Source: Actinomycetota bacterium (GTDB lineage Bacteria > Actinomycetota > Coriobacteriia > Anaerosomatales > UBA912). From it: a stretch of 64,000 nt of DNA. Both the position numbers and the translations under genes were made by a program. The notes below the pieces were generated by a model, which worked only from the letters and a program-made list of their open reading frames with translations, had not been told where the DNA came from and made no database searches. This document shows, piece after piece, positions 58,086 through 60,300 of the stretch. The DNA lies in NCBI GenBank assembly GCA_023488435.1, contig JAMDCK010000059.1, positions 9,910 through 73,909 on the forward strand, in the 5' to 3' direction. The number at the start of each line of letters is the position of its first letter. The first letter of the stretch is position 1.

Positions 58086-58710
58086 GTCTCATCTGGTAGA
58101 GGGGTATCCAGGGGCGGTCAGCGACGCTGGACTGATTTCAGTGATGCTAGGGAGCACTGATCCCAATGTTGTCGACACATTGATTAGCGCATACCCTACA
58201 CCGGATTTACTCTGGCAGATATGTGCAGAAGACCTGACTTGCTTGCCGGGAATCGGACCTGCGAAGGCAGCAAGATTCTTGGCTTGCTTGGAAATGAGTC
58301 GCCGGACAGGGGCCTGGAGACAGGGAAACAAGCCAGTGATCTCGACCCCACGGGACGTCTTCGACTACTGCTGGCCGCTTCTTCGGGGTAGCGATCGTGA
58401 ACGATTCTGCACCTTGGCGCTGGGAACAAAGAACCATTTGCTCAAGATGCAGGAGGTTTCCGTCGGTAGTTTGAACGCATCCATCGTCCATCCAAGAGAG
58501 TTGTTCAAGTTCGCTGTGCGGGCTTCGGCTGCATCAATCGTAGTCGTACACAACCATCCAAGCGGAGACCCAACTCCCTCAGGCGCAGACATTCAACTGA
58601 CACATCGATTGACGAAGGCAGGCGATTTGCTAGGTATCGAGCTTCTTGACCATGTCATCATCGGTGATGGGGGCGAGTTCGCAAGCCTCAAGGAGTCTGG
58701 CCTCATATAG
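58048..58710 (+). CDS. radC: RadC-family JAMM-motif protein
   Basis: It has a helix-hairpin-helix region (LTCLPGIGPAKAARF) and the JAMM motif HNHPSGDPTPS. Its last 52 nt belong to copy 1 of the tandem duplication. Confidence 0.88.
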   Translation: MTLRLIWGEGSAESHLVEGYPGAVSDAGLISVMLGSTDPNVVDTLISAYPTPDLLWQICAEDLTCLPGIGPAKAARFLACLEMSRRTGAWRQGNKPVISTPRDVFDYCWPLLRGSDRERFCTLALGTKNHLLKMQEVSVGSLNASIVHPRELFKFAVRASAASIVVVHNHPSGDPTPSGADIQLTHRLTKAGDLLGIELLDHVIIGDGGEFASLKESGLI

Positions 58711-60300
58711 CCACAGCGGATTCTGGCTGCTAGATGTTGTCCTATCGTTGATGAAGTTGGTCGACGCTGTGCTAAACTAGGTTCGCGACGCATCCCCATG
58801 AGGCGTTATTGCTGATGCGACTCTCTTCTCCGACGACGTTTTTCGGACGGGGGAGCGCATTTTATTGCTGGGCAACGAAAGGAAGTGAAAGCGACTGTGT
58901 CGCTTATCGATATACTCTTCAACTCCATCGGCTGCGATATGGCCGTCGACCTCGGTACAGCGAACACTTTGGTATCGGTCAGAGGCAAAGGAATCGTTCT
59001 CACGGAACCCTCTGTTGTCGCTGTAGAAAAGGATACTAAAAGGGTGCTGGCAGTCGGAATGGAGGCCAAGCGAATGCTGGGTCGCACCCCCGGCAGTATC
59101 GTAGCTATCCGCCCACTCAAAGATGGCGTCATTGCAGACTTCGATGTCACTGAAGCGATGTTGCGGTATTTCATCAACCAGACCAGGGTGAAGAGATTCC
59201 CATGGCAACCCAAGCCCCGCGTGGTTGTGTGTGTTCCATCTGGTGTCACCGAAGTTGAGAAACGAGCGGTTTTTGAGGCAACCATGCAAGCGGGCGCAAG
59301 ACAAGCCTTTCTTATCGAAGAGCCGATGGCTGCGGCCATCGGTGCAGGACTGCCGATTCAGGAGCCGACCGGCAATATGGTTGTCGATATTGGCGGCGGC
59401 ACAACTGAGGTCGCCGTCATCTCACTGGGGGGAATAGTTGTTGCCCGGTCGATTCGCATAGCGGGCGATGAATTTGATGCATCGGTGATGGGGGCGAGTT
59501 CGCAAGCCTCAAGGAGTCTGGCCTCATATAGCCACAGCGGATTCTGGCTGCTAGATGTTGTCCTATCGTTGATGAAGTTGGTCGACGCTGTGCTAAACTA
59601 GGTTCGCGACGCATCCCCATGAGGCGTTATTGCTGATGCGACTCTCTTCTCCGACGACGTTTTTCGGACGGGGGAGCGCATTTTATTGCTGGGCAACGAA
59701 AGGAAGTGAAAGCGACTGTGTCGCTTATCGATATACTCTTCAACTCCATCGGCTGCGATATGGCCGTCGACCTCGGTACAGCGAACACTTTGGTATCGGT
59801 CAGAGGCAAAGGAATCGTTCTCACGGAACCCTCTGTTGTCGCTGTAGAAAAGGATACTAAAAGGGTGCTGGCAGTCGGAATGGAGGCCAAGCGAATGCTG
59901 GGTCGCACCCCCGGCAGTATCGTAGCTATCCGCCCACTCAAAGATGGCGTCATTGCAGACTTCGATGTCACTGAAGCGATGTTGCGGTATTTCATCAACC
60001 AGACCAGGGTGAAGAGATTCCCATGGCAACCCAAGCCCCGCGTGGTTGTGTGTGTTCCATCTGGTGTCACCGAAGTTGAGAAACGAGCGGTTTTTGAGGC
60101 AACCATGCAAGCGGGCGCAAGACAAGCCTTTCTTATCGAAGAGCCGATGGCTGCGGCCATCGGTGCAGGACTGCCGATTCAGGAGCCGACCGGCAATATG
60201 GTTGTCGATATTGGCGGCGGCACAACTGAGGTCGCCGTCATCTCACTGGGGGGAATAGTTGTTGCCCGGTCGATTCGCATAGCGGGCGATGAATTTGATG
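58659..60300. repeat. Perfect head-to-tail tandem duplication, 2 x 821 bp (58659..59479 and 59480..60300)
   Basis: A base-by-base reading shows the two units are identical. All six-frame ORFs inside recur with a +821 offset and identical translations. The flanks diverge immediately outside the units (58658 t vs 59479 g; 59480 c vs 60301 a). Confidence 0.95.
58885..59601 (+). pseudogene. Truncated, chimeric mreB copy (MreB residues 1-198 followed by 40 out-of-frame residues read from the duplicated radC tail and intergenic region)
   Basis: It is identical to mreB codons 1-198 (...RIAGDEFD). It then crosses the duplication junction at 59479/59480 and reads [40 protein letters not shown] before a stop. 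Confidence 0.8.

Follow-up and report, generated by a model that had tools for sequence, protein, structure and literature searches.

A perfect 821-bp tandem duplication at the radC-mreB junction of an uncultured Coriobacteriia contig and its probably technical origin

A segment of 821 nt, comprising the 3' end of radC, the radC-mreB intergenic region and the 5' part of mreB, stands twice and head to tail in the window analysed here (the whole 64-kb stretch of DNA from an uncultured member of the Coriobacteriia). The duplication is most likely not a property of the organism. The comparison of sequences suggests that it is probably an artefact of assembly or processing, and this assignment gains slightly in confidence if editing after assembly is included. 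Judged from the public assemblies compared, the duplication is private to one sequence record.

Structure of the duplication and genes at the locus

The following features were found at the locus, with positions referring to the window:
58048..58710, plus strand: radC, 220 aa, RadC-like JAB domain (Pfam PF04002, E 5.3e-43), intact
58646-58780, plus strand: 44-aa ORF overlapping the radC 3' end out of frame, in the same frame as the tail of the chimeric ORF
58659..59479, plus strand: duplication unit 1, 821 nt, with radC 3' end, intergenic region and mreB 5' part
58837..58857, plus strand: weak terminator-like hairpin in the radC-mreB spacer (second copy at 59658-59678)
58897..59601, plus strand: chimeric ORF, MreB residues 1-194 (1-198 from GTG 58885) followed by a 40-residue tail
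59470..59491, plus strand: novel blunt junction, GAATTTGATG abutting CATCGGTGATGG, also GCGGGCGATGAATTTGATG abutting CATCGGTGATGGGGGCGAG; join sequence GCGGGCGATGAATTTGATGCATCGGTGATGGGGGCGAG
59480..60300, plus strand: duplication unit 2, 821 nt, identical to unit 1
59718..60758, plus strand: complete mreB, 346 aa, ORF open from GTG 59706
60775-61632, plus strand: mreC, recognised by ORF, Pfam and the neighbourhood on other assemblies
61629-62144, plus strand: mreD, followed by PBP2 and RodA

In a direct string comparison the two units showed 0 mismatches in 821 positions. They abut with a spacer of 0 bp, and the identity extends by 0 nt beyond the outer border on either side. This confirms the perfect, spacerless tandem duplication described in an earlier note on this DNA, and an identity of this kind over 821 nt cannot originate from chance. 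All 797 repeated 25-mers of the 64-kb window share the offset of 821 and form its sole repeat family. Neither inverted 25-mer repeats within the 64-kb window nor further repeats in 57000-62000 or the whole window were found. A repeat search also recovered the 821-nt spacing, with only 300 nt shown as the reference copy, while TRF reported nothing at the locus. The latter is no contradiction, since the maximum period of TRF is 500 and lies below 821.

Counted from the GTG at 58885, each unit comprises the last 52 nt of radC (58659-58710 in unit 1), 174 nt of intergenic sequence and 198 mreB codons plus 1 nt, and the 5' 56% of mreB lies inside the unit. This gene content, which had been read from the sequence before, was confirmed by the ORFs and by Pfam. 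Removal of either unit results in the sequence of the independent assemblies described below. No complete gene is amplified by the 821-bp duplication. Because no complete gene gains a copy, there is no obvious benefit by selection or dosage, and the sole added product is an essential actin homologue in truncated form, with a nonsense tail. The earlier statement that radC stays intact and that mreB is complete further downstream, upstream region included, is true, but it has no evidential value, because every gene touched by a tandem duplication keeps one intact copy.

The identical RadC product of 220 aa was called on other assemblies. For the full-length MreB, the match to the family MreB_Mbl (PF06723, E 8.8e-148) covers profile positions 2-326 of 327, and the closest solved structures were PDB 8azg, 7zpt and 1jce, with E-values down to 8e-129 (8azg). 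By these full-length profile and structure matches the product of the downstream gene belongs to the MreB/Mbl family. The genes mreC and mreD, PBP2 and RodA, which follow downstream, constitute an ordinary rod-shape operon.

Two GTG codons come into question as the start of mreB. The Shine-Dalgarno sequence AGGAAG (58880-58885) overlaps the GTG at 58885 and lies 11 nt ahead of the GTG at 58897, and equivalent Shine-Dalgarno and start regions occur in both units (58880-58899 and 59701-59720). Independent gene calls on other assemblies chose the second GTG, resulting in 346 aa. In exact look-ups, MreB and the chimera read from GTG 58885/59706 had no match; MreB read from GTG 59718 was matched exactly on at least 24 public contigs. 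The true start of mreB is thus probably GTG 58897/59718. Because the second GTG is the likely start, the copied part of mreB more likely comprises codons 1-194. Codons 1-198 and a chimera of 238 aa with a 40-aa tail, as given before, are arithmetically correct for GTG 58885, but 1-194 and 234 aa are the likelier values. The NCBI annotation starts mreB at a later ATG and gives 332 aa, which would cut off the conserved N-terminal segment of MreB. An exact look-up of this 332-aa form led to one Logan contig of 1.8 kb only, and a look-up of a 188-aa RadC had no match. The NCBI proteins MCL4553598.1 and MCL4553599.1, from a MAG contig that is apparently the source record, match the locus, and their successive numbering leaves room for a pseudogene between the two genes.

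The tail of the chimeric ORF is an out-of-frame reading of the radC 3' end and the intergenic region of the second copy. Upstream region, Shine-Dalgarno sequence and start codon of the chimera are those of mreB, and the N-terminal half of the MreB fold is kept, including the phosphate-binding motif DIGGGTTE. Compared to the MreB_Mbl profile, only positions 2-185 of 327 are covered. From the known architecture of MreB, the chimera would presumably comprise neither subdomain IIB nor the remaining IIA nor the C-terminal helix, and folding of such a fragment appears unlikely.

The 44-aa ORF at the radC 3' end was reported by gene callers as a 42-aa product (P0009) on 25 other public contigs. This product showed no Pfam match, and the gene call is probably spurious. 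In the duplicated spacer, no Rfam family was detected at E up to 1, and a search for sigma-70-like promoter sites gave none. The 2 terminator-like hairpins compare to 2.5 expected from shuffled sequences, i.e. chance level.

The locus in other assemblies of the strain and in relatives

The nearest species representatives of this organism are environmental Coriobacteriia MAGs with an MreB identity of 85-89%. Among the GTDB species representatives none is closer than 89%, and MreB of Collinsella is 71% identical to that of the window. At 99.67-100% nucleotide identity, the organism was encountered in at least five accession series (SRR22746113/119, SRR10252151, DRR851277/289, ERR12357348 and ENA ERZ22146367).

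In the index of public assemblies, the 346-aa MreB has exact entries in 30 blocks, and 24 contigs, nearly all of 10-200 kb, were read. In 23 of these the same neighbourhood of radC, the 42-aa ORF, mreB and mreC was found in single copy, and the 24th, a 23-kb Logan contig from SRR22746119, showed the same gene order. This contig and a 30.9-kb Logan contig from SRR22746113 were aligned to the window. Each gave two blocks of 100% identity to the intact window, overlapping by 821 nt. When 59480-60300 was taken out of the window, each aligned in one gapless block of 100.000% identity, with a length of 14,283 nt for SRR22746113 and 8,221 nt for SRR22746119. Not one flanking base differs in 15 kb, and the extra unit is the sole difference from the assemblies of the same strain. 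Since these assemblies come from other samples or runs, they show that the duplication is unfixed in the lineage and not that it is absent from the sampled population. Apart from the extra unit, collinearity with the window also holds for another four runs or projects, whose assemblies are 99.67-99.995% identical to it over 18.6-21.1 kb.

Logan contigs are derived from a de Bruijn assembly with k=31. In such a graph a frequent duplication turns the unit into a loop, and contigs end at 58659 and 60300. The contigs of the same strain cross both positions without a break. Proteins that would result from such breaks, namely MreB 1-194, 1-198 and 1-180 (ending in ...GDEFD), the C-terminal 161 aa of MreB and RadC 1-213, were absent from a collection of about 15 billion proteins. 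A further Logan contig of 1761 bp (ERR12357348) corresponds to window positions 59490-61250, or 58669-59479 in the first unit, with one mismatch at 60065. Its start, which lies 10 nt inward of the unit's left edge, was considered as a footprint of a graph break and rejected, since the contig crosses the right edge into the flank; the start probably reflects a drop in coverage. In the JGI metagenome contigs, a 38-mer across the junction had 0 matches, and the same holds true for the wild-type 39-mer; the organism is missing from this collection, which makes the comparison uninformative.

The chimeric protein was likewise sought among about 15 billion public proteins, where it was absent in all forms considered (238, 234 and 220 aa, starting with M or V). 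When a 77-aa peptide across the junction was used in a sensitive search, all matches covered just one half of it, either to the 42-aa ORF (98% identity, 52% coverage) or to ordinary MreB fragments. The proposal that an N-terminal MreB fragment could disturb filaments and cell shape found no support.

For the comparison with relatives, 82 loci were used, comprising 80 from Coriobacteriia or Collinsella and the two from SRR22746113 and SRR22746119. A second copy of the mreB 5' part was found in 0 of the 82 loci, and so was a direct repeat sharing at least 50 30-mers. In 19 of the 82, radC was recognisable upstream, with a radC-mreB gap of 16-287 nt. The single-copy state of this locus in the same-strain assemblies and all 80 relatives speaks against a standing biological feature. 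The duplicated fragment, which is 100% identical to its parent, matches only part of the MreB profile and recurs at none of these loci, is not a conserved mreB paralogue or functional duplicate. Nothing was found in support of the suggestion that the copies are maintained by conversion.

With one unit removed, the locus comprises radC, spacer, mreBCD, PBP2 and rodA in the order common to the nearest Coriobacteriia relatives, and it shows nothing unusual compared to a radC-mreBCD operon organisation. An operon of radC, mreB, mreC and mreD is also the arrangement in Bacillus.

Junction and origin of the duplication

The junction between the units contains neither Ns nor linker bases. Boundary microhomology, which the earlier note had reported as missing, is indeed 0 bp. 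A local alignment of the parental breakpoint regions gave a score of 15, compared to 14.6 +/- 2.3 in shuffles, and exact in-register matches between these regions comprise at most 5 nt at any offset. The nearest shared pentamer, TGATG, lies 11 nt out of register and would yield another period. A flanking repeat in the sense of an R-D-R-D-R structure was not found, and the identity stops at both unit edges. The duplication therefore belongs neither to the repeat-mediated (RecA-dependent) tandem duplications nor, with 0 bp at the junction, to the microhomology-mediated (RecA-independent) ones.

In a genome-wide survey of Salmonella chemostats, direct homology was present at the junction of every spontaneous duplication that was experimentally confirmed, with a deduced cut-off of at least 11 bp, while junctions with short or no homology were distributed as expected of chimeric reads (PMC3411829). 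The 'Tandem' preprint provides criteria for classification, without statistics on blunt junctions. The present case shares with the spontaneous tandem duplications of Salmonella and E. coli the direct head-to-tail geometry, the novel join and the zero divergence of a young, unstable event. In contrast, those duplications form between long repeats (rrn, IS, REP) or microhomologies, whereas here the junction homology is 0 bp and no flanking repeat is present. Furthermore, they usually become visible through amplification of whole genes under selection, whereas no whole gene is duplicated here. By its sequence, the junction looks like a concatenation rather than a typical biological join.

Identical abutting copies in head-to-tail orientation, a blunt and homology-free junction, and occurrence in one record only, while other assemblies of the strain are single-copy, are features shared with false assembly duplications. 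For this structure and this absence we infer a technical cause rather than a private mutation. The duplication would be explained by an error during or after assembly, in which the same 821 nt were laid down twice. Two pieces overlapping by 821 nt could have been abutted with the overlap untrimmed. The assembler could also have circled once around a loop that a chimeric junction had closed in the graph. The actual locus would then consist of single-copy radC, a 186-nt spacer and mreBCD-PBP2-rodA, and the chimeric MreB ORF would be a by-product without biology. Two points speak against an artefact. A pure de Bruijn assembler cannot create a junction without a shared k-mer and, if such an assembler was used, some reads must carry it, be they real or chimeric. 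In addition, tandem duplications are among the commonest spontaneous mutations of bacteria, and their junctions can be blunt. The earlier note had rightly named both an assembly artefact and a very recent event as options.

A genuine and very recent tandem duplication, carried by some or all members of the sampled population, is possible, if doubtful. It would have formed by illegitimate joining, such as a template switch during replication, topoisomerase-mediated exchange or end joining. It would be neutral or slightly deleterious and could be lost by recombination between the 821-nt repeats. The main argument for it is the requirement of a de Bruijn assembler for junction-bearing reads just described. 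The zero divergence fits a very young event, and with radC and a full mreB including its upstream region retained, the genotype would be viable. Moreover, spontaneous duplications are common in bacterial populations (PMC3411829). This origin is opposed by the absence of the duplication from at least 24 contigs with identical MreB, of which two are 100% identical in their DNA, and likewise from all relatives compared. It is also opposed by the protein collection, which shows no trace of graph breaks at either border of the unit, and by a junction homology of 0 bp, unlike in verified spontaneous duplications. Since no whole gene is amplified, nothing obvious would raise the frequency of such a duplication to a level visible to an assembler.

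The 821 nt could also have been pasted twice in a later edit of the record, be it during manual curation, when a gap was closed or contigs were merged, or as a deliberate insertion; as a separate cause we regard this as improbable. Perfect copies, a blunt junction and otherwise wild-type flanks are the signature of an untrimmed overlap. However, this origin is inseparable by sequence from the artefact preferred above, of which it is really a sub-case, and the junction is free of Ns and linker bases.

It is very unlikely that the duplication is functional and maintained, with an expressed chimera of MreB(1-194) and tail modulating filaments and cell shape and with gene conversion keeping the copies identical. 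The mreB expression signals and the N-terminal half of the fold would favour this. They are outweighed by zero conservation, with no second copy in same-strain assemblies and 80 relatives, by the absence of the chimeric protein among the public proteins, by a fragment that ends just past profile position 185 and probably does not fold, and by a tail that is nothing but out-of-frame radC and spacer DNA. The paralogues MreB, Mbl and MreBH of Bacillus offer a parallel insofar as a second mreB-derived reading frame is present in the genome. Unlike the present fragment, which covers 56% of the gene at 100% DNA identity, is fused out of frame and was found nowhere else, these paralogues are full-length, diverged and conserved. 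Hardly to be expected is a real duplication at appreciable frequency whose translated MreB(1-194)-tail product acts as a dominant modifier of polymerisation and hence as a reversible switch of cell shape.

Significance and further features of the window

The main value of these results lies in quality control, since a public record probably contains a false 821-bp duplication and with it, beside the real gene, an mreB gene or pseudogene that is spurious and either truncated or chimeric. Such errors swell the counts of paralogues and pseudogenes and may mislead comparative work on cell-shape genes. Even a real duplication would be of the ordinary, transient tandem kind and would amplify no gene. 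Artefact and private mutation are both ordinary explanations.

Directly upstream of radC-mreBCD-PBP2-rodA, the window contains a complete rnfCDGEAB cluster (52053-57152). The region following this cluster, up to 58085, encodes a protein with a NusG_II domain and a membrane protein resembling component I of heptaprenyl diphosphate synthase. Ferrochelatase and uroporphyrinogen decarboxylase are encoded at 28967-31041.

A [NiFe] hydrogenase with a cytochrome-b subunit is encoded on the minus strand at about 32.5-36.0 kb. In this region the window was compared to a Logan contig from DRR851289, and of 69 mismatches over 21 kb, 63 fell into a patch of about 630 nt (32745-33373), which corresponds to a divergence of about 10%; the remaining 6 mismatches lie outside. 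The patch affects two minus-strand genes, that of the cytochrome-b subunit in its 3' part and that of the [NiFe]-hydrogenase large subunit at its 3' end. Homologous recombination between lineages appears to have brought this tract in.
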